Assembly (NCBI GenBank): GCA_044226015.1
Contig: JBGAHS010000002.1
Location: forward strand, 883,435 to 947,434
Direction of reading: 5' to 3'
Length of the DNA: 64,000 bases
From: Candidatus Obscuribacteraceae bacterium
GTDB taxonomy: Bacteria; Cyanobacteriota; Vampirovibrionia; Obscuribacterales; Obscuribacteraceae
The notes under the pieces are model-generated. The model was given only the letters and a program-made list of their open reading frames with translations. It ran no database searches and was not told where the DNA came from. A program made the translations under genes and the position numbers. Of this stretch, positions 2,121-62,415 are shown piece by piece (position 1 is the stretch's first letter; each line of letters starts with the position of its first letter).

Positions 2121-2599
2121 GATCACGAACTCAAAAGCGCAGCAAAAAAGGTGTGCAACTCATTGAAGTGGCCGCAAGCGCTGTTGCTTTAACTGTGATG
2201 ACTATCCTTTGTATCGATGCCTGCGTAGTGGTGCTTGGGTTTATGTTTAACGATGCGGCATGTCGTGACGCAGCTAGAGCAGCAAGCCAGGCAAACACAC
2301 TTACCAACGCTATTTCTATAGCCAAAACGACAGTAGCCGCCCACAAGGGAGATGGCATGTTCTGGAGCACCCCGGTAGTAACAAACAGCGACGTAGAGTT
2401 TCAAGACTTTGGTGGAAAAATTACCGCGACTGATGTTCCATACGTAACAGTAACAACAAATTGTTCAATTAAGATGCCGGCGCCGCTGTTCTTTTTGGGC
2501 GCAAATCTAAAACCAGATGGTTCGTTTAACTCAACTTGTCACTATACTTTTCCATTGACGAACATCACTCTAACTATTCCAGGCGAAAGCCAAAATTAG
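2117..2599 (+). CDS. TadE-like pseudopilin
   Basis: KKG|VQLIE prepilin motif (G-1, E+5), TM helix, ACRDAARAAS; ATGA overlap with upstream gene. Confidence 0.85.
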   Translation: MRSRTQKRSKKGVQLIEVAASAVALTVMTILCIDACVVVLGFMFNDAACRDAARAASQANTLTNAISIAKTTVAAHKGDGMFWSTPVVTNSDVEFQDFGGKITATDVPYVTVTTNCSIKMPAPLFFLGANLKPDGSFNSTCHYTFPLTNITLTIPGESQN

Positions 2600-2639
2600 C
2601 GCATCTAAGCGTGCGATGGATACTGAAAAATTTGCTAGC

Positions 2640-2675
2640 AAACAAAAACCCGGTTTCAGAAAAGGAAACCAGGTT
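2640..2675 (-). terminator. Intrinsic terminator for the minus-strand gene ending at 2749
   Basis: 11-bp stem (2647-2657/2665-2675, fully paired with one G-U on the minus strand) followed by TTTGTTT on the minus strand. Confidence 0.6.
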
Positions 2676-2748
2676 ATTCAAATTGATTTGAGAGTTTGTG
2701 AGGCAAGTAATGTGTAGCGGAAATTATTCCACCTGGAGCCGGCCCAGG

Positions 2749-3078
2749 TTAAGCCGCCCAGAAAATTGTGACCTTAGCAGGTGCTACTACGTTGGAATTC
2801 ATACCATGAAACTCAACTGCATTCGGGTCAAATTGAATAGTCTCTAGTAGTTCTTGAAGCTGAGTCAAACCATCTTTTTTAGCGACGATAACCGATGTCC
2901 AGAGTGCATCTAGTTCACTTTGCTGTACTTGTTCATTGTCTAAATGTGGGCTCCAGAAACCATTTTCGCTTAAAGAGATTGTGTGCACCCACACATGACC
3001 GATTGCTAGAAGTTTGTAGTAGAGAGAGCCGTGCTCAACAGTACCGTCAGCTGTCAGACCACAAGATTCTTTAGCCAT
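2749..3078 (-). CDS. Hypothetical protein, about 109 aa (MAKESCGLTADG...)
   Basis: Internal ATG at 3078 has GGGAG upstream; the longer GTG extension to 3198 looks non-coding. Confidence 0.6.
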   Translation of the reverse strand: MAKESCGLTADGTVEHGSLYYKLLAIGHVWVHTISLSENGFWSPHLDNEQVQQSELDALWTSVIVAKKDGLTQLQELLETIQFDPNAVEFHGMNSNVVAPAKVTIFWAA

Positions 3079-3488
3079 TACAGGAGTCTCCCATTGCTTC
3101 ACCCAAATGAAGAATACAAAACCATTAGTGCAATAAACGTGCAAGACTTGCACTCTCGGCTCTTTTTTCTTAGACCGAAAACCAGAGCAGTCGCTCACCT
3201 ACCGAGTTGTAAGTAATCAAGCTTAACGCTTGTTTTTGGCATTCGCATCGGAGCAACAAACTCGGTTGCCGCCTGCTCGCGTCGTGCGGATGTATTGAGG
3301 AAAGTCGTAAAAGTCGCTGACTGTGCTCAAACACAGGGAACGAAAGCGTTTCTCAACAGTGAACTGACTCCGTCAATGGGACTTACCGCCCCCAAATTCA
3401 TCAACAGGAAGACCGAAAACCCCAAAAGGCTTGTCTTGCCATAGTTCGTAAACTCGTTGCGCAAGCCCGCAAACATCGCCAAAAATTA

Positions 3489-3516
3489 TTGAAACATTTT
3501 TAAGCCTGCCTATAAT
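3489..3516 (+). promoter_or_regulatory. Sigma70-type promoter for the Cys-repeat gene
   Basis: TTGAAA-N16-TATAAT about 95 nt upstream of ATG 3610. Confidence 0.55.
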
Positions 3517-3609
3517 TCTGATCGTTACTAACTCAACTTCTGCAAAGCCACGCCTGAGAAGGCGTGCGTTCCTTTGCGTTTTCCGGGTGCCAATGGGAGG
3601 GAACTTACT

Positions 3610-4647
3610 ATGTCAGCAGAAAAAAGCTCAATTGTCGAAAGCAGAGAAAACAACTCGAAAGATCTTGATTCAAGATTAGTCAGTGACGCACTAGACCTTC
3701 TTTCGAGATTCGATTCAAAGCAACACGCTGCTCAGAAAGAGCTACCGCCTCAGTTCGACAATAAGTGCATCAGCAATCTCAATGACAAAGACATCAATGC
3801 TTGCGTCGCGCGCCATGAAAAGCCATTGTTCCCACAAGCACCTGATGGTGACAAGGACATCAACGCTTGCGTGGCTCGCCATGAGAAGCCATCGTTCCCA
3901 CAAAGTCCTGGTGGTGATAAGGACATCAACGCTTGCGTGGCTCGCCATGAGAAACCATCGTTTCCACAAAGTCCTGGTGGTGACAAAGACATCAACGCTT
4001 GCGTCGCGCGCCATGAGAAACCCTTGTTCCCAAACAAGCCCGAAACTCCCAAAGATGGTGGCACAGGAAAGCCTCACCCGGGCAACGACGGGCTTTATGC
4101 CTGTTCCAATAAAATAGAGATCCCCAAAGATGGTGGCACAGGAAAGCCTCACCCGGGCAACGACGGGCTTTATGCCTGCTCCAACAAAATTGAGATCCCC
4201 AAAGACGGCAAGGGTCAAGGACACCCGGGTAACGATGGCGTTTACGCATGCTCCAACAAAATTGAGATCCCCAAAGATGGTGGCAAGGGTCAAGGACACC
4301 CCGGAAACGATGGCGTTTACGCCTGCTCCAACAAAATTGAGATCCCCAAAGACGGCAAGGGTCAAGGACACCCTGGAAACGATGGCGTTTACGCCTGCTC
4401 CAACAAAATTGAGATCCCCAAAGACGGCAAGGGTCAGGCACACCCGGGCAACGATGGGCTTCATGCTTGCTCCAACAAAATCGAGATCCCCAAGCAAGAG
4501 AATCACGCACCTTCACACCCACAGATAGACAAAACTCCTAGACCCGAATCTCCCCAAACGCCGGCACCAAAGGAATTACCCTCGAAACCTGAACAAAAGA
4601 ATCACCTGCTAGACCTTCTCAAGCAAGAATTGAAAACCAACAGATAG
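3610..4647 (+). CDS. Cys-repeat protein, 345 aa, candidate multi-core peptide precursor or metal-binding protein
   Basis: GGGAGG RBS before ATG 3610; 4 DKDINACVARHEKP repeats and 6 HPGNDGxxACSNKIEIPK repeats; much of the variation between copies is synonymous in this frame. Confidence 0.8.
   Translation: MSAEKSSIVESRENNSKDLDSRLVSDALDLLSRFDSKQHAAQKELPPQFDNKCISNLNDKDINACVARHEKPLFPQAPDGDKDINACVARHEKPSFPQSPGGDKDINACVARHEKPSFPQSPGGDKDINACVARHEKPLFPNKPETPKDGGTGKPHPGNDGLYACSNKIEIPKDGGTGKPHPGNDGLYACSNKIEIPKDGKGQGHPGNDGVYACSNKIEIPKDGGKGQGHPGNDGVYACSNKIEIPKDGKGQGHPGNDGVYACSNKIEIPKDGKGQAHPGNDGLHACSNKIEIPKQENHAPSHPQIDKTPRPESPQTPAPKELPSKPEQKNHLLDLLKQELKTNR
3784..4035 (+). repeat. Coding tandem repeat family A, 66 nt x 4
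   Basis: Units start at 3784, 3850, 3916 and 3982 (last one partial). Confidence 0.95.
4048..4494 (+). repeat. Coding tandem repeat family B, 72-75 nt x 6
   Basis: His codons of HPGNDG at 4075, 4150, 4222, 4297, 4369 and 4441. Confidence 0.95.
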
Positions 4648-4718
4648 CATTTAGGCAACAATGCTATATACAACTGGAAATTGCGGTGATACCATAGGTA
4701 GGGTCGCCAGGAGAATTT

Positions 4719-4844
4719 ATGCGTTCACTGCCAGGATTTTTGTACCTTGTGTTTGCATCACCAATCGCCTGCTTAGCGCTATTGGCTCGCATTAACCAAC
4801 TTCTGAATTTGGTTGACCCTGCGTACAAGAAAAAGCATCGCTGA
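4719..4844 (+). CDS. Small 41-aa membrane protein, not in ORF track
   Basis: AGGAG RBS 5 nt before ATG; MRSLPGFLYLVFASPIACLALLARINQLLNLVDPAYKKKHR has one hydrophobic helix and a basic tail. Confidence 0.55.
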   Translation: MRSLPGFLYLVFASPIACLALLARINQLLNLVDPAYKKKHR

Positions 4845-4857
4845 ACTCAACTTGAAG

Positions 4858-6033
4858 CTAGACGCTCACATTCATAAGCTCATTTTGGGCTTGCATAGTC
4901 TTTTGAAAAGCTGTCTGCAGATGATTCATAAACTCACCCACAGGCACATCATCAGAAATAAACGACTGGCTTGCACTTCCAAGTGCCGCGTCAGCTGCAT
5001 TGAGAATTGAACGAACACTCTTCACTTTGTCAGCCATGCCTTCATTGGATTTCATGGCTTTCAACTGTGTCTCGATCGCAGCGCGCATTTCAGCCATTCC
5101 TACAATAAGACCCACGGCTGAGGCTTTCTCAAAAGCCTCTTCAAAGCGCGATTGCGTAACCAATCTCTCAGCCGTTTCTATGCTGAATTGAGCCAGGGAC
5201 AAATCAACTTTCACACCGTCAGGCTGTTTATAGTTCTCTAGAATTTGCTTGGAACTATGGAGAACGACCTTAGCCCGCTCTTCCGCTGGATCTACTTCAA
5301 GCTTTTCCGCTTCTTCCTTCTTCTCGGTTTCAACTGCCTCTGCAATAGTAGCAGCAGCTAATGCAAGCTCATTAACCGACTCAGCTTGTGAAGGCGAAAA
5401 GTCCTGCTCGAGCACTTTTTCTGTGGCAGCCTCGCTGAGTTCAGTCGCAACAGAGCTGGCATTCGGCGAAGAAGCAGTAGCCGCACTCGGCTCGTCATTT
5501 GCAGCTCTCTCAATTGCCGCCTCACTCAACTCGGTGCTAACTGTACTTGTATCTGAATGCGGCACCGCTGGAAATGAACCAGAAGTACCGCTACGTCGCC
5601 GTGCTTCGACAGCTCTTTGCGCCGCCGCAGCGGCTTCCTTTGCCTTAGCGACCTTTTCGTTTTTAGCCTGACGTGCAGTAGCTAGCGCCTCTTCTCGCTT
5701 GCGTCGTGCAAGTTCGATCTCAGAAACCGGCTCAGCCGATGGTGTTGCAGCAGGTTGCGCAAGCGGTTTCTCCGAAGCGCTGGAGCTGCCATGGGTTCCA
5801 GAGACAGGCTCGGACGAACCACTATTTGCGCCGCTTGCAGCCGAATGCTTCGCACGAGCAACAGATTCACCGCCGTCACTTCTCGACGACTCACCCTCAG
5901 TCACTTTTGGTCGCAAATCCTCACGAAAGCGATTTTGCTCCTCCGCCTTACGTTGGAGATATCGCCTAGTCAAGAGAGCGGCAATGGTGCAAGAACCTGC
6001 AATAGTTAAAACGCGAAATATAATTGGAAACAT
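4858..6033 (-). CDS. Membrane-anchored Ala/Glu-rich helical hypothetical protein
   Basis: N-terminal TM (IIFRVLTIAGSCTIAALL) followed by RRYLQRK, a low-complexity linker and a helical C-terminal domain; start uncertain. Confidence 0.7.
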   Translation of the reverse strand: MFPIIFRVLTIAGSCTIAALLTRRYLQRKAEEQNRFREDLRPKVTEGESSRSDGGESVARAKHSAASGANSGSSEPVSGTHGSSSASEKPLAQPAATPSAEPVSEIELARRKREEALATARQAKNEKVAKAKEAAAAAQRAVEARRRSGTSGSFPAVPHSDTSTVSTELSEAAIERAANDEPSAATASSPNASSVATELSEAATEKVLEQDFSPSQAESVNELALAAATIAEAVETEKKEEAEKLEVDPAEERAKVVLHSSKQILENYKQPDGVKVDLSLAQFSIETAERLVTQSRFEEAFEKASAVGLIVGMAEMRAAIETQLKAMKSNEGMADKVKSVRSILNAADAALGSASQSFISDDVPVGEFMNHLQTAFQKTMQAQNELMNVSV

Positions 6034-7799: not shown

Positions 7800-9368
7800 T
7801 CATTCAGCGATTGTTATGGAACCGCCAGATTCCTCTAATACGCGATTTGCGTTAGTTCGCGTTTTAGCACCGTGCTCAGCGAGCATTGAGGCAATATCAG
7901 TGTGCCCGTTTCGAAGGGCAACATCCAGGGGGGTATATCCCCAGCCATCTTCCGAATTCAGATTTACACCCAATTCGAGAAGGTACTGCACCACATTCAA
8001 ACGACCTTCGTTTGAGGCAAGATGGAGGGCAGTGCATCCATTGTAGTCTTGAATATCAGGATCTAAACCGCCAGCAATGAGGCGGCGCATTTCATTCAAA
8101 TCACCTTCCATTGCAGCAGAACAAAACGCAATGACTCCAGCATATTTGGCTTCATGCCGATTGCGCCGAGGGTCGATGCGATCGTCCTTCAAACCGATGG
8201 TGCTATCGAATGCGTGAAACTTGAATCGAGCAGAGAGTCGCTTGCAAAAATCAATGCCACGAACTGAATTTCCCAGCTCATCCAAACGAGGTGACCAGAG
8301 AGCTATTCCCATCAGATTTGGAATGACAAGCAAAATAGCACCGGAAACACCACTCTTACCAGGAATTCCCACACGAAAAGCAAATTCACCAGAGAAATCA
8401 TACATACCGCAAGAAGACATAAGTGAAAGGCAATCTTTGACGTGATTTGATCTGAACACCTTGTTGCCAGTCAGAGGGCAGGTTCCGCCATTAGCCAAGG
8501 TAGCTGCAATCACCGACATTGCGCGGGTGGTGACTTCAATAGAACAACATTGAAAGTAGAAATCCAGAACATCCAAGATATCTACACCTTCAGGAAAAGC
8601 GCCCTTTTCTCGCATGAAATATGCAAGTGCAAAATTGCGATCTCCGGTTTGTCGTTCTGAAAGATATACAGCATTGTCAAAACCGACTTTCATATTGCCG
8701 GACAGGTCTTTCCACTTACTCATCACGAAGTCAAAACGATCTGACGCAGTAGAACCACGCCTAATCAAGGCACCACTCATGATGGCACCAGCATTGATCA
8801 TCGGGTTGTGAGGACGCCCCTTCGCGTTGAGAGTCAATTCGTTGAAGGTTTTGCCGCTCGGTTCTGTGCCAACATAATTGTGAACCTCATCCTCACCATT
8901 CTCATCCAGCGCCAGGCAATACGTGATGGGTTTAGAGCAAGACTGAACACAAAAGAAATCGTCTGCATCACCGATTGCAAATTGTTGACCATCGATAGAG
9001 CAAACCGCCATTGAGAATTTGTCTGGGTCGACGCGCGACAGCTGAGGAATGTAGTCCGCAAGGTCGCCTCCCTCGTTGGCGCGCACAATTTCGAAGATGT
9101 GCGCAAGTTCAGAGGAGAAGTTGGCAAAATGCGGAATCGACATTTGCCCACTCAGCACTTTGTCAAACAGGGCAGGAGAGCAAGCCTGGAGTTCACGGAA
9201 TTGTTCAGGTCCCAAATCAGTTTCGACAGCCTTCAATTTTCGAAAGAAGGCAGAGGCGCGGGGATCATTTTCCAGAATGCCAGCTTCCGAAAAGATTTCA
9301 TGGAGGGTTTGTCGAGAAACCTTTGCCCCTGAAGCATACGCTTTGAATAAATCGGTATTATCGGACAT
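7800..9368 (-). CDS. glsA: Glutaminase with N-terminal helical extension and C-terminal ankyrin repeats
   Basis: ADYIPQL, catalytic QSCSKP, NPMINAGA, GMYDFSG and KSGVSG; ankyrin motifs GCTALHLAS and GYTPLDVAL. Confidence 0.93.
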   Translation of the reverse strand: MSDNTDLFKAYASGAKVSRQTLHEIFSEAGILENDPRASAFFRKLKAVETDLGPEQFRELQACSPALFDKVLSGQMSIPHFANFSSELAHIFEIVRANEGGDLADYIPQLSRVDPDKFSMAVCSIDGQQFAIGDADDFFCVQSCSKPITYCLALDENGEDEVHNYVGTEPSGKTFNELTLNAKGRPHNPMINAGAIMSGALIRRGSTASDRFDFVMSKWKDLSGNMKVGFDNAVYLSERQTGDRNFALAYFMREKGAFPEGVDILDVLDFYFQCCSIEVTTRAMSVIAATLANGGTCPLTGNKVFRSNHVKDCLSLMSSCGMYDFSGEFAFRVGIPGKSGVSGAILLVIPNLMGIALWSPRLDELGNSVRGIDFCKRLSARFKFHAFDSTIGLKDDRIDPRRNRHEAKYAGVIAFCSAAMEGDLNEMRRLIAGGLDPDIQDYNGCTALHLASNEGRLNVVQYLLELGVNLNSEDGWGYTPLDVALRNGHTDIASMLAEHGAKTRTNANRVLEESGGSITIAE

Positions 9369-13101: not shown

Positions 13102-14538
13102 ATGAGCGAGAAAACTTCATTTGGTCTCTATAGCAAGAATGTCTACACTCCAGAAGGAGTAAGAGAAGCTGTTGTCGTAATAAATGAGGGAAAGATTTCG
13201 GACATCATTGCGCCAGAGCTTGCTCATCCTGATTGTCAAATCGAAGATTTGAGCGAACTGTGTTTGATGCCTGGTCTCATCGACAGCCACGTACACGTAA
13301 ACGAACCTGGCAGAACTGAATGGGAAGGGTTTCGCACAGCGACTCGCGCTGCCGCCGCAGGTGGTATCACAACAATCGCAGACATGCCTCTCAATTGCGA
13401 CCCAGTAACCACGACTGCAAAAGCTTTCCAAACCAAACTCGACGCCTTAAAAGGCTCAAGCAAAAGCAAATCGAAGAAGGCAAAAGCTAGCGAAACAGCC
13501 AGCGACGCGGATGAAGAAGATAAGCTCTGGGTGGACTGTGCCTTCTATGGCGGCGTCGTCCCCGGCAACAGTGGCGAACTCGAAAAAATGATAGAAATGG
13601 GAGTTAAGGGCTTCAAGTGCTTCTTAATTCATTCTGGAATTGATGAATTCCCAAATGTCACAGAAAAAGATTTGCGCGAAGCTATGCCAATCTTAGCTAA
13701 GCATAAAATCCCCTTGCTGGTACATGCGGAACTCGATTGTGGACAGTGCCATGAAGAAGAGTGGGCAGACCCTCGCTCATACAAATCATTCTTAGCCTCC
13801 CGTCCACGCAAGTGGGAAAATGACGCTATTGAAATGATGATCAATCTCTGCCGCGAATTTGGTGGACCAGTGCACATTGTGCATCTTTCATCATCTGACG
13901 CACTGACACAGATTTCACAGCTAAAACGTGATGGGCTGCCATTTACAGTAGAAACTTGCCCACATTATCTGAGCTTCGAAGCAGAGAATATTCCCGATGG
14001 AGACCCGCGATTTAAGTGTGCACCTCCTATTCGAGAAGCTGAAAATAGAGAGAAGCTCTGGCGTGGTCTTACCGCAGGGCTCATCGACTTTGTCGTTAGC
14101 GACCATTCCCCATGCGTTCCAGACAAGAAATTCCTTCCAGAAGGAGACTTGAAGAGAGCCTGGGGAGGAATTTCCTCACTGCAATTCGGACTTCCAGTCA
14201 TTTGGACTGAAGCGCAAAAGAGAAAGTTGGACCTGACAGATCTCGTAGAGTGGATGTGTGCTCGACCAGCTAAATTTCTGGGCTTGCAAGATCGAAAAGG
14301 CGCAATCAAAGTGGGCTACGATGCAGACCTGATCGCATTTGACCCGAAGGCTGATTTCAAAATCAACAAAGAAATCATTCAGCACAAACACAAAGTAACT
14401 CCCTATGAGGGCAAAGAATTAAAAGGCCTAGTCCGCAAGACTTATGTCAGAGGGCGCCTGGTGTACGAAAACGGGAAATTAACCACACATGCCAGTGGTG
14501 ACCAATTACTGCAAAAACGAGTGGAGATAAATGCATAA
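13102..14538 (+). CDS. allB: Allantoinase
   Basis: DSHVHVNEPGRTEWEGF, GFKCFL, ETCPHYL, FKCAPPIR, SDHSP and AWGGISSLQ. Confidence 0.95.
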   Translation: MSEKTSFGLYSKNVYTPEGVREAVVVINEGKISDIIAPELAHPDCQIEDLSELCLMPGLIDSHVHVNEPGRTEWEGFRTATRAAAAGGITTIADMPLNCDPVTTTAKAFQTKLDALKGSSKSKSKKAKASETASDADEEDKLWVDCAFYGGVVPGNSGELEKMIEMGVKGFKCFLIHSGIDEFPNVTEKDLREAMPILAKHKIPLLVHAELDCGQCHEEEWADPRSYKSFLASRPRKWENDAIEMMINLCREFGGPVHIVHLSSSDALTQISQLKRDGLPFTVETCPHYLSFEAENIPDGDPRFKCAPPIREAENREKLWRGLTAGLIDFVVSDHSPCVPDKKFLPEGDLKRAWGGISSLQFGLPVIWTEAQKRKLDLTDLVEWMCARPAKFLGLQDRKGAIKVGYDADLIAFDPKADFKINKEIIQHKHKVTPYEGKELKGLVRKTYVRGRLVYENGKLTTHASGDQLLQKRVEINA

Positions 14539-15611
14539 TGGACAAAAATGCGATTCTAGATGCTGCTGCATTTACAGGCACTATCGACCTCGCTTCAGAA
14601 CGGGTTGGCGGCAAAGTTCTCTATGCCAATGACGAATTCTTTGCAGAGAAAGAGAATTTGATAAAGCCAGGTCGCGGTGTTTTCATTGCTGACAAATACA
14701 CTGAGCGTGGCAAATGGATGGATGGCTGGGAAACCAGGCGCAAACGCACTCCTGGGCACGACTGGTGCATATTGAGACTTGGTATTGCTGGACAGATTCA
14801 CGGGGTCGACATCGACACAAATCACTTTCTTGGTAATAACCCAGCTTATGCCTCGATTGAAGCAGCAGAATTACACACGGATGTGCTGGTCTCAGAGCTG
14901 ATTTCAGATTCATTCGAATGGGTTGAAATACTTCCACGCATTCCGCTGAAACCTGGTGCTCAAAATATTTTTGCCGTGACCAGCAAAGAACGATGGACCC
15001 ACCTGCGTTTGAACATATATCCAGATGGAGGTGTAGCACGCTTCCGTGTCCACGGAGAGCCGGTTCCAGACTGGAGTCGCATTGGCGAAAACCAGGAAAT
15101 CGATCTTATCGCGGTAGAGAATGGTGGCAAAGTTCTGTGCGCCAGTGATATGTTTTTTGGAAACAAAGACAACATGATTATGCCTGGCCGAGCCGAAAAC
15201 ATGGGCGATGGATGGGAAACAAAACGTCGCCGTGGACCAGGTTTTGATTGGTCAATAATCAAGCTGGGACATGAAGGCGTGCTCAAGAAAGTTGAAATTG
15301 ACACAAATCACTTTAAAGGTAATTACCCTGACAGTTTCTGGCTGGAAGGTACATATGCGCCTGATGCGGACATATCGCTTCTTAATTGGAACCAATTCGA
15401 ATGGAAACCAATTCACGAACAGACGAAGCTGCAAGCGCACCATCAACACTTTTATGATGTGAAACAAGAACACCAGGGTCCGTGGACACATTTGCGACTG
15501 AGTATCGCGCCAGATGGTGGCGTGAGCCGCTTCCGTGCATTCGGCATGCCACATAGTACACACCACACACAGAAGGAAGAGGCAAAAAGTGGGGCTAAGT
15601 CCGTTAAATAA
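14538..15611 (+). CDS. alc: Allantoicase
   Basis: Duplicated DGWETRR/DGWETKRR, IDTNHF and PDGGV[AS]RFR motifs. Confidence 0.95.
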   Translation: MDKNAILDAAAFTGTIDLASERVGGKVLYANDEFFAEKENLIKPGRGVFIADKYTERGKWMDGWETRRKRTPGHDWCILRLGIAGQIHGVDIDTNHFLGNNPAYASIEAAELHTDVLVSELISDSFEWVEILPRIPLKPGAQNIFAVTSKERWTHLRLNIYPDGGVARFRVHGEPVPDWSRIGENQEIDLIAVENGGKVLCASDMFFGNKDNMIMPGRAENMGDGWETKRRRGPGFDWSIIKLGHEGVLKKVEIDTNHFKGNYPDSFWLEGTYAPDADISLLNWNQFEWKPIHEQTKLQAHHQHFYDVKQEHQGPWTHLRLSIAPDGGVSRFRAFGMPHSTHHTQKEEAKSGAKSVK

Positions 15612-16092
15612 CGCAAGCAATGCAGAAGCATATCGAAGCCTGGTTCGCTGCTGTGGAGCCGAGAAGTGGGTTGAAGCGATGCTGAACGCACGCCCGTACA
15701 CGTCGATGGACGACCTCTATGACAAAGCAGAGCGTTTTCTGGATGCTCTGGGCGAAGAAGATTGGAGAGAAGCTTTTTCACACCATCCAAAAATCGGCGA
15801 TTTGCATGTATTGCGACAGAAGTTCAACACCACAGCAACATGGGAAGCAGGAGAGCAGTGTTCAGTTGCAACAGCAACTGAGGACCTACTCCGTGAGCTG
15901 CACGAATACAATGTCAGATACGAAGACAAGTTCGGCTACATCTTCATCATTTGCGCCACCGGGCGTAGCGCAGAGTCCATGTTGGACAATTTGAAACTGC
16001 GATTGCCTAACGACAAAGACAAAGAGCTGCAAATTGCAGCGAACGAACAGAAGAAAATTACACTTTTGAGATTGGAGAAACTATGCCAGTAA
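15589..16092 (+). CDS. uraD: OHCU decarboxylase
   Basis: EAFSHHPKIG, YEDKFGYIFIICATG and EQKKITLLRL; likely GTG start at 15589 overlapping the end of alc. Confidence 0.9.
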   Translation: MGLSPLNNASNAEAYRSLVRCCGAEKWVEAMLNARPYTSMDDLYDKAERFLDALGEEDWREAFSHHPKIGDLHVLRQKFNTTATWEAGEQCSVATATEDLLRELHEYNVRYEDKFGYIFIICATGRSAESMLDNLKLRLPNDKDKELQIAANEQKKITLLRLEKLCQ

Positions 16093-16430
16093 GCCCGATT
16101 ACAACGCATATTCTTGACACAGCAAAAGGTTGCCCGGCTGCCGGAGTTCCAATAAGAATTGAAATAGAAAGAAGCGGCAGATTTGAATTGATTGGCGAAG
16201 GCGTGACCAATGCAGATGGTCGAGTAATTGATCTTCTTCCTTACGATAGACCGCTCGAAACAGGGCGCTATCGCATGCGCTTCGACACGAATAGATACTT
16301 CAGCGATAACAAGATCGAAGGCTTCTACCCTTATGTTGAGGTCGTCTTCGACATCCTACAAGCAGAGCAGCATTATCATGTTCCTCTTCTTCTGAGCCCT
16401 TTCGGCTTCTCGACATATAGAGGCAGCTAG
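16083..16430 (+). CDS. uraH: 5-hydroxyisourate hydrolase, transthyretin-like
   Basis: ITTHILDT, TNADGR, HYHVPLLLSP and C-terminal YRGS. Confidence 0.97.
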   Translation: MPVSPITTHILDTAKGCPAAGVPIRIEIERSGRFELIGEGVTNADGRVIDLLPYDRPLETGRYRMRFDTNRYFSDNKIEGFYPYVEVVFDILQAEQHYHVPLLLSPFGFSTYRGS

Positions 16431-16582
16431 AGCTCAAACGCAGTTAATGAGCTAATTTCCAAGCTAGCGCTTTTCGTAACAATTTTAGAATCCAAGTAGC
16501 GAAAAGCTGCGTAATTTAGCGCAGTTCCAGCGAAATTCGGCTATGATTTCGGATCCAAAAATAAGCTCGGGGGTTGGAAATC

Positions 16583-17587
16583 ATGGCGACGACAGTGCAA
16601 ACAGATGCTGGACAGATGACTGCTGTCAAGAACTTTATCAAGCATCATTTCAGACACTTCAACGCTGCGGTAGTCATCGATGCTGCCGAAGCGTACAACG
16701 CGCACCTGAACAAAGGCGGCAAGATGTTCATGACTCTTGCTGGTGCGATGAGTACAGCTGAGCTTGGGCTGTCTCTTGCAGAGATGATTCGCCAGGACAA
16801 AGTACATGCAATTTGCTGCACTGGCGCAAATCTTGAAGAAGACATCTTCAATTTAGTGGCCCACGATAGCTATGTAAGAGTTCCCCACTATCGTCAACTG
16901 ACCCCACAGGAAGAGGTCGCCCTTCGCGAAAAGGGAATGAACCGCGTTACCGACACATGCATTCCAGAAGACACAGCCATTCGCGCAATTGAGCATCAGG
17001 TTCTCGACCTCTGGAAAGCCGCAGACAAAGAAGGAAAGCGCTATTTCCCTTATGAGTTCATGTATCAACTGATTCGCAACGGCAGCATTGAAAAGTCATA
17101 TCAAATCGACCCGAAAAACTCCTGGATGATCGCAGCCTGCGAAAAGAACATTCCAATCTTCACACCAGGCTGGGAAGATTCAACATTGGGCAACATCTTC
17201 GTTTCGCACGTATATTCTGGCGACCTGTCCAGCTACCAGATTTACAAATCTGGGCTGGAAGCAATGGCACAACTAATTGATTGGTACAAAGCTAACTCCA
17301 AAGACGAAAGCATAGGCTTCTATCAAATTGGTGGTGGCATCGCCGGTGACTTCCCGATTTGCGTTGTTCCCCTTATTCACCAGGATTTGCAAGAGAAGAG
17401 CTGCCGCTATTGGGGTTATTTCTGCCAGATTTCAGACAGCACCACTTCATACGGTAGCTACAGCGGTGCTGTTCCAAACGAAAAAATCACATGGGGCAAA
17501 CTGGAAATCGACACCCCGCGATTTGTAATTGAATCTGACGCATCGATAGTGGCACCACTCATGTTCGCTTACATACTTGGACAATAA
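16583..17587 (+). CDS. Deoxyhypusine synthase-like protein, probable polyamine/homospermidine synthesis
   Basis: TGANLEED, NRVTDTCIPE, IGGGIAGDF, GSYSGAVPNEKITWGK and SDASIVAPL. Confidence 0.88.
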   Translation: MATTVQTDAGQMTAVKNFIKHHFRHFNAAVVIDAAEAYNAHLNKGGKMFMTLAGAMSTAELGLSLAEMIRQDKVHAICCTGANLEEDIFNLVAHDSYVRVPHYRQLTPQEEVALREKGMNRVTDTCIPEDTAIRAIEHQVLDLWKAADKEGKRYFPYEFMYQLIRNGSIEKSYQIDPKNSWMIAACEKNIPIFTPGWEDSTLGNIFVSHVYSGDLSSYQIYKSGLEAMAQLIDWYKANSKDESIGFYQIGGGIAGDFPICVVPLIHQDLQEKSCRYWGYFCQISDSTTSYGSYSGAVPNEKITWGKLEIDTPRFVIESDASIVAPLMFAYILGQ

Positions 17588-17607
17588 TTCAAGCGGGGGA
17601 ACATAAA

Positions 17608-18111
17608 GTGACAGCGGAAGAATTGATTCAACTTCTAGGTTTAGAGCCCCTGCCCAGAGAGGGAGGCTATTTCCGACGCTCTTATTGTTGCAACGAAGAA
17701 ATTCCACAACCATCGATGCCTCATCGCTATCTGGTGGACCATCCTTTCGGAACTTGCATCTACTATCTTCTTACAAGAGATAGCTTCTCCCATTTTCACA
17801 GCTTACTATCTGATGAGATTTACCACTTCTACCTGGGCGACCCTGTTGAGTTGGTTGAACTGCACCCAAACGGCGAATGCAGCATCACAGTGCTGGGACA
17901 AGACATCCTGAATGGACAAAAGGTTCAACACGCAGTAATGCGCAACACGTGGCAAGCATCATATCTGCGACCGGGTGGAGACTGGGCGTTGCTTGGTTGC
18001 ACCGTAGCACCAGGCTACGACGATAACGACTTCCAGATGGGCAACTGGGAAAACTTACTGCGCACGCATCCGAAACACCATCAGATCATAATGAAGCTTT
18101 CCAGAAAGTAG
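17608..18111 (+). CDS. Cupin_5 (DUF985/YML079W-like) protein
   Basis: LEPLPREGGYFR, IYYLL, SHFH..SDEIYHFYLG and GCTVAPGY. Confidence 0.88.
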   Translation: MTAEELIQLLGLEPLPREGGYFRRSYCCNEEIPQPSMPHRYLVDHPFGTCIYYLLTRDSFSHFHSLLSDEIYHFYLGDPVELVELHPNGECSITVLGQDILNGQKVQHAVMRNTWQASYLRPGGDWALLGCTVAPGYDDNDFQMGNWENLLRTHPKHHQIIMKLSRK

Positions 18112-44829: not shown

Positions 44830-45260
44830 AAACCTCACTCGCAAGAACTCCGAATTCATTTTTCCACGTGCAGAAGTCCATAAACCCTATTATCAGGCGA
44901 AACAGAGAAATTCTTGGGCTTTTTCGGTGTCGAATAAACCTGCATTCTGCGAGAGTCAAAGGGCACGATTTAATGAAGTTTCGGACTCGAAATATCGCCA
45001 TTTGGGCACATAAGAAATACACATTAGTATCCAGCGAGCATTGTCAAGAGGCAATTCGCGGGGTATTCCGTGTTGAAGCGAAACGAATTCCTGTCCTGTT
45101 TTCCCGGTGGTTCAATTTCTCTTGTCGAACAAGAGTAGATAAAATCCCAAGCTCAAACGAAAAAGAGTAAAGACATTTTGTCCAGAATGTCGAGTGAGGG
45201 TGTAGATACCACTGGCGGGTGCAGAGTAGGGTTCGCGGAAATTGGTCCGGGAGAGCTCTG

Positions 45261-48200
45261 ATGCCATTCGACGATAACGACAAAGCAACAAAACCTAAAA
45301 AGACTGAAGCAGACGAATACTTGGGTCTGATTCAGCGCCAGCAAGAGGAAGCAACGCGTGCTAGCGACAATTTGTCGCAAGACGCCTGGACGCCGCCTAA
45401 CCTGGAAGCAGGCAAGAGTTCCACTGACAAATCGAAGCCGGGCGACCGCGTTACTACAAAAATTGAGTTGTCGCAAGTTTATCCCATAGGCGAGCTGGAC
45501 AAGCGCGCCCAGGCGTGGAGAGACTACGGTGGTCTACTCAGCCCGTTCGATCCCAACTCACTGAGAAGCCGAAATGGAAGCACTGACCAGCAGCAGGGCG
45601 GTCAACCGGGCGCAGGTGGCGAAAAGCAACCAGGCGACAAGAAACCAGGCGACCAGACACAGGGCCCCATTCCGAACCCATATGAATATGAACCGCCATA
45701 CAAGCCAGGGCAGGACTACCAGCCACCAGCACAGCCAGAAGGCAAACCCGCAGGCAGTGACGCCGGACAATGGATCGCTGGACTGACGGCACTGGCGGCA
45801 GGCGCTTACGCACTCAGCCGGACGGTCAAATGGCTCACCAGAGAGAAGGACAATGTAGGTCCTATCGTAGACAAGGCAAGCGTAGACCGAAAAGCAGAAT
45901 ATAAGGATGCAAAAGTTGTAGCTCAAACCAAAGACAGCAAAGAAGAGCTGAACTGGAAAAAGTTTGACGGCAAAGAGTTTGAAACCAAAGACGGCAAAAA
46001 GGTCGGCATAAAAGACGTCGATTTCAAACTGCAGCTGCCTGAAGGGGCCGACAAGAACGCCGAGCGGGCTCTTAAAGCTGAATTGGAACTGCGCTTACGT
46101 GGGAAAGGCGACCTTGCCGAACAGGCAAGAAAGCTGACTGTTGAAAGCGACCCAAGCTTAAAAGGCAAGGAAGAAAAACTTGTCTACCGCGAAGGAGCCA
46201 GTGGCAAAGACTTCGAAATATTGGGAACGCGTGACGGCAAACTTGAGATTAAAGACGGCCCTACCGACTCGCGCCTGGTTGAACCAAAAGCAGAAGATAA
46301 AATCGTCTATAAAACCTCTCCCGAGAACGAGCAAGCAGCAAAGGACAAAGGCAAGCCGTTTGAACTGCTCACGCGCACGCTCAACAATGACACCAAACCT
46401 GGTGCGAGCGAACTAGGACAACTCGAGAAAGAACTCAAAGCCAAAGAGCAGGCGTTGAAAGAAGAAGAGGCGAGAATAAAGCTTGAGAAAGACCGCCTTG
46501 CAAAAGAATCAACAGCTCTTGGCGACAAAGAGAAAGCGCTAGGCGAGAAAGAGGGTTCCTTAGCTAGTGAGGAGCAAAAGCTCAAAGAAGCTGAGCAAAA
46601 AGCAACAGAAACAGCCGATAAACTCGCTCAGAAAGAAACAACACTCTCAGAACAAACACGCGCTCTCGATGAAAGACGTCAAAAACTAGAGTCCGATCAA
46701 AAAGCACTGGATGCAGAAAAGCAGAAAGCTGATGCTGACAAAACGAAGATCGAAGCAGAAGAAACTCGCCAGAAGCAAGAAAGAGAATCGATAGACCAGA
46801 AGAATCGTGAACTAGCAGACCAGGCACGACAACTCACGGACGAGAAAGCAACATTAGCAGCTGATCGCGAAGCGTTGACTGGCGAAAAAGCGAAGGTAAA
46901 TGCAGATCGAATTGCACTAAATACTGAAAAGGAACAAGTTGCAGAACAGCGCGAAGCTCTGACCAAGGCGCGAGAAGCCCTGACGAGCCAACAAGCAGAA
47001 CTACAACAAAAACAAGACACGCTGGTCAAAGACCAGGAGCAACTCGCGCAAGATCAAAGAGAGTTTCAGAAAAAGCTCGACGGTTTTGCAAAAGAGCAAG
47101 AAGCACTCCGCAAATTGCAACAGCAAAGTGAGGCGCTTCAAAGAGATCTCGATGCTCGCAAAGGCGAGCTAGACAAATCTACGCAGAAATTAGAATCTGA
47201 CCGTTCTGCTCTGGATAAGAGCAAAACAGAGGTCGCACAGGAAAAACAAGCTCTCGAACAACAACGCGATCAGCAAAATGCCGATCAAGCAAAAATTGAG
47301 GAGCGCCTCAGAAAATTAGCAGATCAAGAAGTTGCGAATAAGACTAAGGAAGAGCAGCTTAGTTCTGAGAATCAGCGTCTTGCCGGAGAACGCGAGAAGC
47401 TGGCAGACCAACAGAAATCACTCGACGGACAGAAGGCGCAAATTGCCGAAGATAGAGAAGTGATTGAGGAAGCTCGACGCGGTCTGGATGACAGAGCCAA
47501 AGCAATTGGACAAGAAGAAAGCAGACTGGTCGAAGAGAAAGCACGCCTGGCGCAAGAATCGAAAACTTTAGCCGACGAGCGCAAAGTCATCGAAGCCGAA
47601 AAACGTAGCAATGCCGATACAAAAACTCAGCTCGGTGAAGAAAGAACAGCCTTAGAAAAACAGCGTGGCGAAATCGAAGCAGCACGCGAAGCAATAGTGA
47701 GAGACAGACAAGCTCTCGATGCTGAACGGCTGGCGTTTCGCACGGAAGCAGCTCGAACTTCAGCACAACTCGCTGACGAACAACAACGACTGTCTACTGA
47801 ACGGCAAAAACTGGATGGTGAGAAAACAGAACTCGCTAAACAGAAAGAAGAATCAGCTGCAACGAAGAGAGCCCTCGAAGGCGAACAGGCTAAACTCGAC
47901 GAACGCAGCCGCAACCTCGACGCTGAGCAAGGAAGACTTGCAAAGCTCGACAGCACGCTTGCAGAGAAAGAGGGTAAGCTCAATGAACAAGGTTCTGCCT
48001 TGCAAAAAGAGGCACTAGCACTACAAACAGAAAGAGAAGTCCTCGGTCAGCAAAAACGCGAACTAGACGAACAGTCCAAGCAGCAAAAGCTTTCGCAGGC
48101 TGAAATAGAGAAAAGAAATACAGAAATTGCAGACAAAGACCGCGAGTTGAAAACGCGCGAAGAGAAACTTGCAAAAGACAATACAGCCCTGACTGAAGAG

Positions 48201-51200
48201 CGTAGCAAACTTTTAACGGAGAAAGAAGCCATTCTGGCAGATCGCCAAAAACTCACAGAAGAGCGGCAGACTTTCACCACCGAGAAGGCAAACTTGCAAG
48301 CTGAACAAGGCAAGCTAGCAGATGCGCAGATCAGACTAAATGAAAAAGAGCAAGCTCTTGCAAAATCGGAAGAAGCAATTCTGCAGCGGAAAGGCGAACT
48401 CGACAAAGCGGTCGCACAACTTACGGCCGACCAGGCTAAGCTTGCCGATGCTCAGAAGGAACTGAAGGACTCACAAGAAAAAGTAGACGCACGCAGCAAG
48501 ACTCTTGATACTCGTGCTGCTGCCATCGAGAAGAGCAGCAGCGAACTTGCCGCAGCACAAGAGACTCTAAAAACCGAACAAACAGCGCTAGAGAGAAATA
48601 GAGAAGCGCTAGAAACAGACAGAAAGCAACTGGAAGCCGACAAGAGAACACAAGGCGCTGATGCAGCCAAGCTGGCTGAACGCGAACGAGAAATCACAGA
48701 AAGAAAAGCGGCTCTCGACGCTTCAGCAGAAGCGCAGAGCAAAGAAGCTGTGCGACTAGCGGCTCTATCAGAACAAGTAAGCAGAGAACAAGCAGAACTC
48801 AGAATATCTAAAACAACACTGGCAGCAGACCAGGAAAAACTCTCAGCCGCACAAAAGGTTCTTAGCACCGATCAAGAAAAGCTTGCAAGTGAAAGAGCGC
48901 AACTGACTCAAGATCAAGAAAAGAATGCAAGCGAAAAAGCAACCTTGCTAGCCGAGAAAGAAGCACTAGGCAAAGAAAAAGAGACACTTGCTAGCTCAAA
49001 AGCTCAGCTTGAAAGCGAACGAAGCAAACTCGTCGAAGAGAAAGGTCGCGTCGCAAGCAACAAAGCAGACCTGGAGAAAGAGCGCGCACGACTCACAACA
49101 GAACAGCAAGCTCTTGATAGTGCTAAAGCAGCATTTGAGACTGAAACTGCTCAAAAATCAGCAGAACTAGCAGGAGAGAAACAAGCACTTGCTACTGAGC
49201 GACTCACCCTGGAAAGTGACCGCAGAAAAATAGAAGCTCAAAAGACAGAGCTTGATGCACAAAAGCGCGCCCAAGACACCAAAGAAACACAGCTAAGCGA
49301 AAAACAGTCTGGACTGGCGACCGAGGCAGAGCGCATAGGTAAACTGTCTACAGAAATTGAAGGTCGCGACAAGGAATCCAAAGATCGTAAAGCTGCACTC
49401 GATGCTACTGCAGCAGAGATTCAAGCCGCTCGCGAAAAACTCAGCGCAGATCAAACAAAACTGACAGAAGATCAAGCAGCAGCGAAGAAAACTGCTGGCG
49501 AACTCAGCGCCGAACAGACTCGCCTTTCTCAACTAGATGAATCATTAAAAGCTAAAGAAGCAAAACTTCTAGGTGATCGCAAAGCATACGAAGAATCTAA
49601 CACCAAACTTCTCGAAGACAAAGCAGCGCTGCTAGCAGACCAAAAGAAGCTTGCCGGCGACCAGGAAAAGCTCGCAGCTGAGCGCACACAACTGCAAACC
49701 GAAAAACAACAATTAAACGAAGAACGCGCAGCTCTTAATGCTAATGAACAAAAACTAGCTACTGCGCAAGAAGAACTGAACGCTAAACAAACCAAGTTAG
49801 CTCAAGACCTCGAACAACTAAAAGCAGATCAAACAAAACTTGCCGAAGCTCAAAAGGGACTCGGAGAAGCTCAAAATCAAATAGGTCGACGAGAACGACA
49901 ATTAGATCAACGCAGCTCAGATCTCGATCGCACTGCAGCTGATCTAAAAGCAGGACAAGACGCACTTTCAAAATCGCAAGGCGATTTACAAACAAAGACA
50001 GAACAGTTGGCTGCAGACAAGCGCCAACTCGAGGAAGACCGCAAAGCTGCAGATGCAGACACAAGCAAGCTAGCCGAGCGTGAAAAGACCATCAGCACGA
50101 GAGAAGCGGAGCTGCTCGCTAAAACCACAGCGAATGCTAAAGAAGCAGAACGCTTGCAAGCGATGAATGAAAAGCTCAACGCACAAAGAGGACAAATACA
50201 GCTAGACAAACAAGCTCTAGAACAGGAAAAGACCAAGGTAAGCGAAGCCAAGCAAGCCTTAGATACAGACAGGCAAAAGCTTGACGCTGAGAAAGCGGCG
50301 CTGAGCACAGAGAAAGCCGGTCTTGAAGCTACGAAGCAATCATTGCAAGACCAAGCAAAAGAAATAGAAACAGCGCGGGCGGAAATAAAGAAAACTCAGG
50401 GCGAACTCGCAACAGAGAAAGACGCCCTCAGCAAACGCGCTGCCGAATTGCAACAAGCTCAAACACAGCTCGATAAAGATAGAGAAGCGTTCGAGAAGGA
50501 AAAGGCAACAAACGCTGCTGACCTTGAAACCAAAACAAAAGAGCTCGCTGACCGAGAAAAAGCGCTCCAGGGCGAGCAAACAAAACTAGCTGAGGACAAC
50601 CGCAAACTTGAAACGGAGAAGACTTCTCTCAAAGATCAGCAAACAAAACTAGATTCCGACAGAGCTGCTTTAACCGGACAACAGCAAGAGCTTGCAAAAC
50701 AACAAACACAATTGGGTGAAAAAGACTCTGCACTCAAGGCACAGTCCACTGCTTTGGAAACTAAAGCCAAGGAAATAGAAGGTAACCTCACAAAACTTGG
50801 TACTGAGCGTCAAGCAATCGAAGACGAGAAAGCCCAGCTTGAAAAAGACCGTGTTGCGGTCGACGCCGACCAGAAGAAGATTGCTGAACGTGACCATCAA
50901 CTCGCTGAACGACAGACTCGTTTAACTGAAAAAGAGTCACAACTAACCAGACAAGGACAAGAAGTTCAATCACAAAGACAAACGCTTCTTGCAGATCAAG
51001 AAAAACTGAAGTCTGACCAAGCAGCAGTAGCAGAGCAATCGGCGAAGGTAGCAACAGATCGCGTTGCACTCAACGAACAAGCACAAAAACTTGCAGCTCA
51101 ACAAAGCGATTTGCTGACCCGAGAAACAACCTTGAAGACGGGACAGGAAAAACTCCTTGCCGACCAACTAACTCTCAACTCGGACAAACAAATATTGCAA

Positions 51201-62079: not shown

Positions 62080-62415
62080 TTAGCGAAGTTTGGGCAGTCA
62101 CACTCAGCTTCCCAAGTTGACTAGACCCTTTCACAGCGCAAAAAAGGAAGCGAATACGCAGCGATAGGTTCGGGTTTGCCCGTCTAAGATCACGATGAGC
62201 TCACATTGTTTTTTTTTCAGATGCCCGGCATCCGGACACCTGACTCCTGCTACTTCAAAATCTGGATTATCTTTGGGCTGAGGCAGGATCAGTGTTCCCC
62301 ATGCGGGAATAAGAGAATTAATACAGCGTTTGCGGACTTGCGCCTTGTCGACCTTAACAAAATCTCAGACAATCGCAAGTGTCAGTGCCTGCAAGCTTTC
62401 TGCCGGGTGAGCTCA

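Follow-up and report, generated by a model that had tools for sequence, protein, structure and literature searches.

A leader-bearing protein with eleven cysteines as a probable substrate of a distantly encoded MNIO-methyltransferase fusion in a Candidatus Obscuribacteraceae bacterium

The gene P0001 occupies positions 3610-4647 on the forward strand of a 64,000-nucleotide stretch of contig JBGAHS010000002.1 (positions 883,435 to 947,434, assembly GCA_044226015.1) of a Candidatus Obscuribacteraceae bacterium, hereafter called the window. It is an ATG-started open reading frame (ORF) of 345 amino acids, its stop codon included in these coordinates, and it encodes a leader followed by two arrays of short repeat units, each unit with exactly one cysteine. 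Our analysis suggests that P0001 is a leader-guided multi-core substrate whose eleven cysteines would be oxidised in trans by the single methyltransferase-linked MNIO (DUF692) enzyme of this genome, encoded on contig C7, and we give this interpretation a probability of roughly 70%. That P0001 is a substrate is supported by comparative genomics. A sequence-only reading of the window had proposed an undescribed precursor modified in trans, with the MNIO precursors among its models, and this proposal gains support from homologues located beside related enzymes in other genomes, from the C7 enzyme itself and from a core motif shared across the family.

The leader of P0001 contains the helix motif DLDxxL[IV]xxAL.. 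(residues 18-31, positions 3661-3702), which is kept in 12 aligned family members and is a putative docking element for an enzyme partner domain. At the leader end lies a conserved PPxxDNKCI element around Cys53 (positions 3745-3780), which is repeated as a unit in the relative P0025. Array A (residues 59-146, positions 3784-4047) consists of four 22-residue units with an identical 14-residue core and cysteines at 65, 87, 109 and 131. A linker and array B follow (positions 4048-4494), the latter with six units of 24 or 25 residues, cores at residues 156-295 and cysteines at 165, 190, 214, 239, 263 and 287. Tandem Repeats Finder recovered both arrays, as a 66-nucleotide period in 3.8 copies at 3783-4032 (89% matches) and a 72-nucleotide period in 5.7 copies at 4075-4493 (88% matches), so that the division into four and six one-cysteine units made in the sequence-only reading is borne out. 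The last part of the protein (positions 4495-4644) is a Pro/Lys-rich tail, absent from relatives, for which a terminal helix is predicted at residues 328-343. The total number of cysteines is eleven and not ten as first counted, Cys53 in the DNKCI element of the leader having been missed, and the leader, then described as unique, shares both its helix and this element with relatives. Since relatives repeat the same element as a unit, we count it as core-like, and Cys53 likely marks the eleventh core of P0001. The N-terminal 40 residues are hydrophilic and by eye show no hydrophobic run, as in the aligned family leaders, in agreement with the claim that a Sec signal is missing. The AlphaFold2 single-sequence model of P0001 is disordered (mean pLDDT 42.6) except for helices at residues 14-37 and 328-343, and predicted disorder outside these two terminal helices is as expected of a peptide-like substrate.

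The proposed promoter and ribosome-binding site were both located. A promoter-like site (TTGAAA-16 nt-TATAAT, 11 of 12 matches) lies at 3489-3516, about 94 nucleotides 5' of the ATG, on the coding strand; four such sites were counted in the region 2500-5000 against 2.3 +/- 1.5 in shuffled sequences, and the site is therefore to be read as a consensus match only. The ribosome-binding site GGGAGG, read off the sequence, is found at 3595-3600, 9 nucleotides 5' of the start codon. Between the two, the predicted 5' untranslated region contains a GC-rich stem-loop of 7 bp (3549-3566, +), which appeared terminator-like in our scan and is followed by a poor T-run.

The coding sequence is under constraint. 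Codon adaptation of P0001 is 0.817, compared to a genome mean of 0.821 +/- 0.017, and its codon usage is thus native. The A core has eight variable nucleotide columns, each at a third codon position with synonymous changes (pS 0.56, pN 0), and the B core has 16, of which 12 fall at third positions (pS 0.50, pN 0.044). Because the repeat copies differ almost wholly by synonymous changes, P0001 is, judged by these substitutions, under purifying selection, and its repeats are not a recent unconstrained expansion. The gene was also found in bioreactor and activated-sludge metagenomes. A diverged strain from a sludge run of another study (X4) carries 17 changed leader codons, 12 of them silent and five conservative (A3V, N15S, R22K, R33K and A40S), so that purifying selection is seen between strains as well as between repeats. 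Six of the listed between-strain changes fall within residues 18-31, and all except R22K are synonymous.

Relatives of P0001 were not found by direct searches. A whole-protein search of a 5.8-billion protein set gave no related sequence among 8,000 scored candidates, a search of 40 relatives gave nothing below E 0.07, and one of the Atlas gave no usable match. Furthermore, none of the pattern matches in genome (116) and metagenome (83) contigs was confirmed, and the exact sequence is absent from a 15-billion collection. A weak Pfam match to DUF6968 (20.6 bits, cut-off 27) was rejected as a repeat artefact. Relatives surfaced only stepwise, from the MNIO loci of the genome to the ORF P0002 and then by a search with P0002. 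The latter is a short ORF 1.7 kb from the C7 enzyme gene, in which an ALDLL helix is followed by D[N/A]KCI and by ACxxxxxIPxDG, resembling the B unit. When residues 1-80 of P0001 were compared with the genome, P0002 was the top non-self match (phmmer E 0.18, blastp 0.088), the relation was reciprocal, and the pairwise BLASTP E-value of the two proteins is 3e-4. A search of 61 genomes with P0002 gave a marginal match in G043, namely P0003, a 286-residue protein with the same leader, a PPELDN[R/K]CI element and 13 one-cysteine repeats. P0001 and P0003 are collinear across leader and repeats (BLASTP E 9e-12), and P0001 also matches the in-cluster precursor of the congener G002 (G002_C114, E 6e-10), which has 12 cysteines and INACSAKIEP cores. 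The wording of the cores is near-identical in relatives, e.g., ACSAKIEP in G002 and CAEQIKLPKDG in G019 and G080.

A leader alignment of 12 sequences (A2) then served as the profile for a search of 104 genomes from the bacterial family to which this organism belongs, with a cut-off of E<1e-6. It detected 16 leader-bearing ORFs in 10 of these genomes. P0001 scores 72 bits against this profile, which includes its own row. With the two rows of this genome left out, P0002 (7.4e-6) and P0001 (0.0044) still rank at the top of 151,213 ORFs, the next one standing at 0.075. The scored candidates of the 5.8-billion set contain 15 leader-family matches, all unnamed or annotated as 'hypothetical', and one leader-family relative carries the source label 'Drouetiella sp.'. 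An exhaustive scan of 1.84 billion representative proteins returned 21 matches, reduced to about 18 clusters after removal of P0019 (ankyrin repeats), P0023 and P0031, which were judged to be false positives amplified by repeats. P0021 and P0028 are short P0002-like forms in other organisms, and the short in-cluster form is hence itself conserved. On sequence comparison, P0001 belongs to a small family of leader-plus-cysteine-core proteins, and genes at the precursor position in four genera are homologous to its leader and cores.

The core motif of this family was derived from 121 distinct cysteine-centred windows of members other than P0001. Relative to the cysteine, position -3 is I/V in 57/121 windows, -2 is F/Y/N/D, -1 is L/A in 67, +1 is V/S/A in 83, +3 is R/K/H in 66 and +4 is I/V/L in 63, while Pro occupies +5 in 45 windows and +7 in 21. 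The motif can be written as hydrophobic(-3)-x-[A/L]-C-[V/S/A]-x-[R/K]-hydrophobic with Pro frequent at +5 to +7, and both unit A (I-N-A-C-V-A-R-H-E-K-P) and unit B ([L/V]-Y-A-C-S-N-K-I-E-I-P) match it. The motif that the sequence-only reading had drawn from the two arrays thus holds for the hydrophobic residue at -3, A/L at -1, the cysteine, R/K at +3 and the common Pro at +5 or +7; it does not hold for Glu at +5, which occurs in 7/121 windows and is not a family feature. In its 11-residue form that motif was found in two of the 151,213 six-frame ORFs of the genome, with ten copies in P0001 and a single one elsewhere. Histidines are likewise not conserved in the family. This bears on a different explanation, in which P0001 would be an unmodified, disordered protein rich in Cys, His and Asp whose eleven thiols bind metal or buffer redox changes independently of any MNIO. 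Each unit does combine one cysteine with histidine and acidic residues, the predicted structure is disordered and no enzyme gene lies nearby. The relatives speak against it, since their +4 position is mostly I/V/L, the His at -9 is specific to P0001, and it is the leader and the cysteine-flanking residues that are conserved, tracking the presence of the enzyme. We consider an unmodified metal or redox protein improbable, and the original suggestion of a Cys/His metal-binding protein is weakened accordingly, even if metal binding by a modified product is possible.

A search of the genome with PF05114 revealed four MNIO genes, on contigs C10, C7, C4 and C8. The C7 enzyme is an uninterrupted fusion of 815 amino acids (C7:778522-780966) that combines an MNIO domain, a DUF2063-like partner domain and a class I S-adenosylmethionine-dependent methyltransferase domain, and it is the sole methyltransferase-linked MNIO of this genome. 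In NCBIfam the MNIO domain scores highest with HvfB (254 bits) and BufB (245), followed by ApyH (123), ChrH (58) and MbnB (46). The closest solved chain to the enzyme is 3bww (E 2e-52), compared to 1e-23 for the TglH type and 3e-10 for MbnB. An alignment of 264 columns links the middle region to the stand-alone DUF2063 partner of the same genome (hhalign probability 99.3%, E 1e-20), and because of this coverage the region is, on profile comparison, a full-length HvfC/DUF2063-like partner domain. A profile search of this domain against PDB sequences gave nothing meaningful (best E 0.15), so the assignment rests on hhalign and NCBIfam. The C-terminal domain resembles TehB-like or daptide-methyltransferase-like class I enzymes in NCBIfam. 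With four MNIO genes in the genome, and with C10 and C7 MNIO domains that are 46% identical, P0001 could in principle be the substrate of another enzyme, i.e., the C10, C4 or C8 MNIO or an unrelated cysteine-modifying system. The C10 enzyme, however, has its own adjacent Sec-signal precursor and a stand-alone partner, and across genomes the leader family follows methyltransferase-linked enzymes only. On these comparisons, which covered the MNIO genes, we regard another enzyme as very improbable, the least likely of the explanations considered here, and retain the C7 enzyme as the presumed modifying enzyme of P0001.

The relation between leader and enzyme is seen at the loci of the relatives. 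P0003 ends about 50 nucleotides upstream of a gene for an 830-residue MNIO, DUF2063 and methyltransferase protein in G043, which is 58% identical to the C7 enzyme over its full length. An MNIO is present in 98 of the 104 family genomes, and a methyltransferase-linked one in 11. The fused triad occurs in G000, G002, G043, G065, G073, G105, G111, G116 and G118, while in G019 and G080 a separate methyltransferase gene lies directly upstream of an MNIO-DUF2063 fusion, so that all three activities are kept side by side there too. All 10 leader-positive genomes carry a methyltransferase-linked MNIO, compared to one (G065) among the other 94; the co-occurrence with DUF692 genes, which the sequence-only reading had put forward as a check, is observed for these methyltransferase-linked ones. 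Of the 16 leader ORFs, 13 are no farther than about 2.5 kb from the enzyme gene and one is at a contig end; the two remote ones are P0001 and a two-cysteine, non-repeat protein of G002. In G002 the gene order is adenylosuccinate synthetase, precursor, TPR protein, enzyme and Ser/Thr kinase, and the same order is found on C7 with P0002 as the precursor. In three genomes of one genus (G114, G117 and G109; loci L107, L106 and L108) the enzyme is missing and syntenic leader-bearing Ala/Gly-rich proteins with 0-2 cysteines are found. These are weaker profile matches, from which the C-terminal cysteine cores are absent together with the enzyme. Other neighbours at the scanned loci include a TPR protein and kinase, an RND pump and SLOG protein, a two-component system and HEAT protein, and TetR with RibD_C. 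The scanned loci of the family showed neither a protease nor an exporter gene that is conserved. ATP-grasp, PatA/PatG and radical SAM/SPASM genes were likewise lacking in the window and in these loci; the whole genome was not searched for them.

P0001 itself lies in a stretch of about 2.2 kb (2600-4857) between a TadE-like gene and a gene for a 404-residue membrane protein. In the congeners G005 and G003 the order is TadG, TadE-like gene, a spacer of 0.3-0.5 kb, a 400-residue membrane protein and RecQ, without the P0001 insertion. No flanking direct or inverted repeats were found around the 2.2-kb insertion. A link of P0001 to the neighbouring Tad pilus genes was rejected, as both congeners keep the Tad genes without P0001. 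Moreover, 64 nucleotides of the 3' tail (4519-4582) recur with 91% identity in the same genome at C9:236329-236392, an intergenic site upstream of a Ser/Thr kinase gene, and two metagenome runs contain this copy as well; it may point to a mosaic gene or to a mobile fragment of small size. The insertion also holds an ORF of 149 amino acids (2749-3198, reverse strand; perhaps 108 from an internal Met) that has no Pfam match; its relatives, located elsewhere in two congeners, are only weak.

In a further explanation, P0001 would be a displaced duplicate of the precursor in the cluster that is no longer processed, and would persist as a relic or act as a decoy or regulator that occupies the partner domain via its leader. 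The insertion is absent from both congeners, the tail sequence shared with an unrelated intergenic site suggests a mosaic origin, and the precursor slot beside the C7 enzyme is taken by the short P0002, a form conserved elsewhere as P0021 and P0028. However, the synonymous-only divergence of the cores at a pS of about 0.5 implies that the cysteine units have been selected and not the leader alone. Furthermore, P0001 has its own promoter-like site, ribosome-binding site and native codon usage, and it is retained in a second, diverged strain. A displaced duplicate thus seems to us about as improbable as an unmodified metal or redox protein, and modification of P0001 by the C7 enzyme remains the favoured explanation.

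A number of observations weigh against modification of P0001 by the C7 enzyme. No RiPP (ribosomally made, post-translationally modified peptide) enzyme or MNIO was found among the 46 ORFs scanned in the window, as the sequence-only reading had noted for the adjacent genes, and no MNIO was found on contig C1, to which the window belongs. P0001 adjoins no such enzyme and the candidate sits on a separate contig, C7, for which reason its action in trans is something we infer. The C7 enzyme scores under the equivalog cut-offs of NCBIfam (HvfB 254 vs. 360, BufB 245 vs. 310 and HvfC 43.5 vs. 142), and precursors with a Sec signal are the substrates of its characterised relatives, so that its chemistry may depart from the HvfBC/BufBC precedent. 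G065 has a fusion enzyme and no detectable leader protein, in a genome that is 66% complete and with the most divergent enzyme, and the 10 positive genomes represent only four genera, so that the co-occurrence was not counted over independent cases. The leader domain is also found on proteins with 0-2 cysteines (G002:C215, G114, G117 and G109), and it may be a module for interactions in general instead of a leader dedicated to RiPPs. Finally, at one locus examined a methyltransferase homologue adjoins a cupin-like gene and not an MNIO, and the RNA trace of P0001 amounts to one 171-nucleotide metatranscriptome contig over the B array, maybe DNA carry-over, which is too little to call expression.

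The G002 protein among these deserves a separate description. It is a protein of 340 amino acids (L114; G002 C215, 676-1698, reverse strand), encoded away from MNIO genes, with the same leader, a DNFCI element, a non-repeat C-terminal region and two cysteines. Proteins of other types thus carry the leader module as well.

Among 400 further genomes sampled from the phylum, no partner-methyltransferase fusion was found, and 24 had stand-alone methyltransferase homologues. These homologues (L119-L123) are about 200 amino acids long and 36-42% identical to the enzyme domain.

Based on the above, a mechanism can be proposed. The leader helix (residues 18-31) would dock on the HvfC-like partner domain, and the MNIO domain would then carry out a four-electron oxidation of each cysteine placed within the family core motif. 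HvfBC-, BufBC- and FonBC-type enzymes are described as converting repeat cysteines to 5-thiooxazoles with a loss of 4 Da per cysteine (PMC13097082 and PMC13056109). By analogy with these closest characterised enzymes, a 5-thiooxazole would be the likeliest product at each cysteine, and the methyltransferase domain might then methylate this product, S-methylation of the ring thiol being a guess. This specific chemistry is tentative, and we hold it to be somewhat less probable than its alternatives taken together. Because no conserved protease or exporter accompanies the loci and no signal peptide was seen, the product would remain a modified cytoplasmic polyprotein rather than give rise to released peptides. 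A role of modified P0001 in metal or redox buffering is possible. A broader proposal, that the triad enzyme of these non-photosynthetic relatives of cyanobacteria makes S-methylated thiooxazoles of leader-bearing cytoplasmic polyproteins, including distantly encoded substrates, so that one enzyme would serve a dispersed set, is speculative, and as a whole we find it rather doubtful.

Among known systems, the captophorins (BufABC bufferins, HvfABC oxazolin and FonABC fontiphorin) have an MNIO with a DUF2063/RRE partner whose targets are cysteine-containing and often repeated motifs. They are similar in that the C7 MNIO scores best with HvfB/BufB and its middle domain with HvfC, all below the cut-offs given above, and in that the substrate carries many one-cysteine repeats, as P0001 does. 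They differ in that captophorin precursors have a Sec signal peptide whereas the P0001 family has a leader helix, and in their units, which are 5-mers such as EGKCG compared to 15-25 residues here. Furthermore, in the family described here MNIO and partner are fused, the methyltransferase is fused or adjacent, and P0001 is encoded apart. In long captophorin members the product need not be cleaved (PMC12452194 and PMC13097082). The putative precursors of adjamnio-I are listed without a signal peptide, with 122-293 residues and 8-21 cysteines, before an MNIO with a DUF2063-like partner, in the 2025 survey of MNIO substrates by Antoine et al. (PMC12452194, Table 2). They resemble the P0001 family in being signal-less, cysteine-rich and encoded before such an MNIO, and they differ in a separate 'PME-type 2' partner gene and in that a methyltransferase goes unmentioned in the main text (PMC12452194); the two families may nevertheless overlap.

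Methanobactin (MbnA/MbnBC) and chryseobasin (ChrA/ChrHI) also depend on leader-guided, signal-less precursors whose cysteines are rebuilt by an MNIO, but their cores are single and short (CPACGMG for ChrH) and the C7 enzyme is far from both ChrH and MbnB by the scores given above. ChrH products are described as S-methylated (PMC13056109), and the abstract of PMC10214503 ascribes transfer of the methyl group to the MNIO system and not to a separate class I methyltransferase domain. A ChrH-type system of a Melainabacteria genome has been studied, which according to PMC13056109 carries the CPACGMG motif and belongs to a different branch. As for multi-core precursors in general, the P0001-family loci examined lack a protease, a macrocyclase and an ATP-grasp gene, have a single cysteine per unit and are MNIO-linked, all of which distinguishes them from cyanobactin and graspetide systems. 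In cyanobactin PatE and the multi-core graspetides, one leader is followed by repeated cores with conserved flanking recognition residues. Full-text searches of open-access papers and bioRxiv turned up no account of a fusion of MNIO, partner and methyltransferase, nor of the P0001 leader family.

Unusual peptide chemistry is being found at a growing pace in MNIO enzymes, whose well-studied HvfB/BufB branch is known for products that are exported by Sec and bind copper. With the family described here, this branch would gain a class of long, multi-core substrates that depend on a leader and lack a signal peptide, together with an enzyme into which partner and methyltransferase are built. If true, an S-methylated thiooxazole would be a heterocycle not yet described in ribosomal products, and one enzyme would maintain dispersed modified proteins instead of the peptide of one gene cluster. 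Substrates outside the gene cluster of their enzyme are missed by cluster-based genome mining by design, and P0001 bears on how one docking helix may direct an enzyme to 11 sites. The leader family is rare, and its ecological importance is probably local to sludge-type habitats.

Other MNIO loci encountered during the analysis are also of note. The locus on C10 (C10:12095-14262; L032 4102-6262) is a canonical bufferin/oxazolin-type operon with a 105-residue Sec-signal precursor with six short cysteine repeats, an MNIO, a DUF2063 partner (30.6 bits) and YceI, and 1.4 kb upstream of it lies a second small signal-peptide cysteine protein. In G002, contig C56 (L093 4115-6990) encodes a protein of 296 amino acids with 25 cysteines in 9-10-residue KCK[I/V]E.P repeats and without the leader motif, directly upstream of a 656-residue MNIO and DUF2063 fusion, and this protein may represent another undescribed substrate class in the same genus.

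Elsewhere in the window, the reverse-strand gene at 7800-9368 encodes a glutaminase that carries ankyrin repeats at its C-terminus and matches EF-hand_14 at its N-terminus, a domain order which we take to recall that of animal kidney-type glutaminase. Genes at 13102-18111 (+) form a purine-breakdown run of an amidohydrolase, allantoicase, OHCU decarboxylase, HIU hydrolase, a deoxyhypusine-synthase-like gene and a cupin. No photosystem reaction-centre genes were found in the genome, which is 92% complete. Finally, two ORFs of 2,618 and 2,631 amino acids at 45219-53075 and 54184-62079 (+) are almost without family matches (one weak match to FBF1), and they are followed at 62206-64000 (+) by an EDR1/CTR1/ARMC3 peptidase-like protein.

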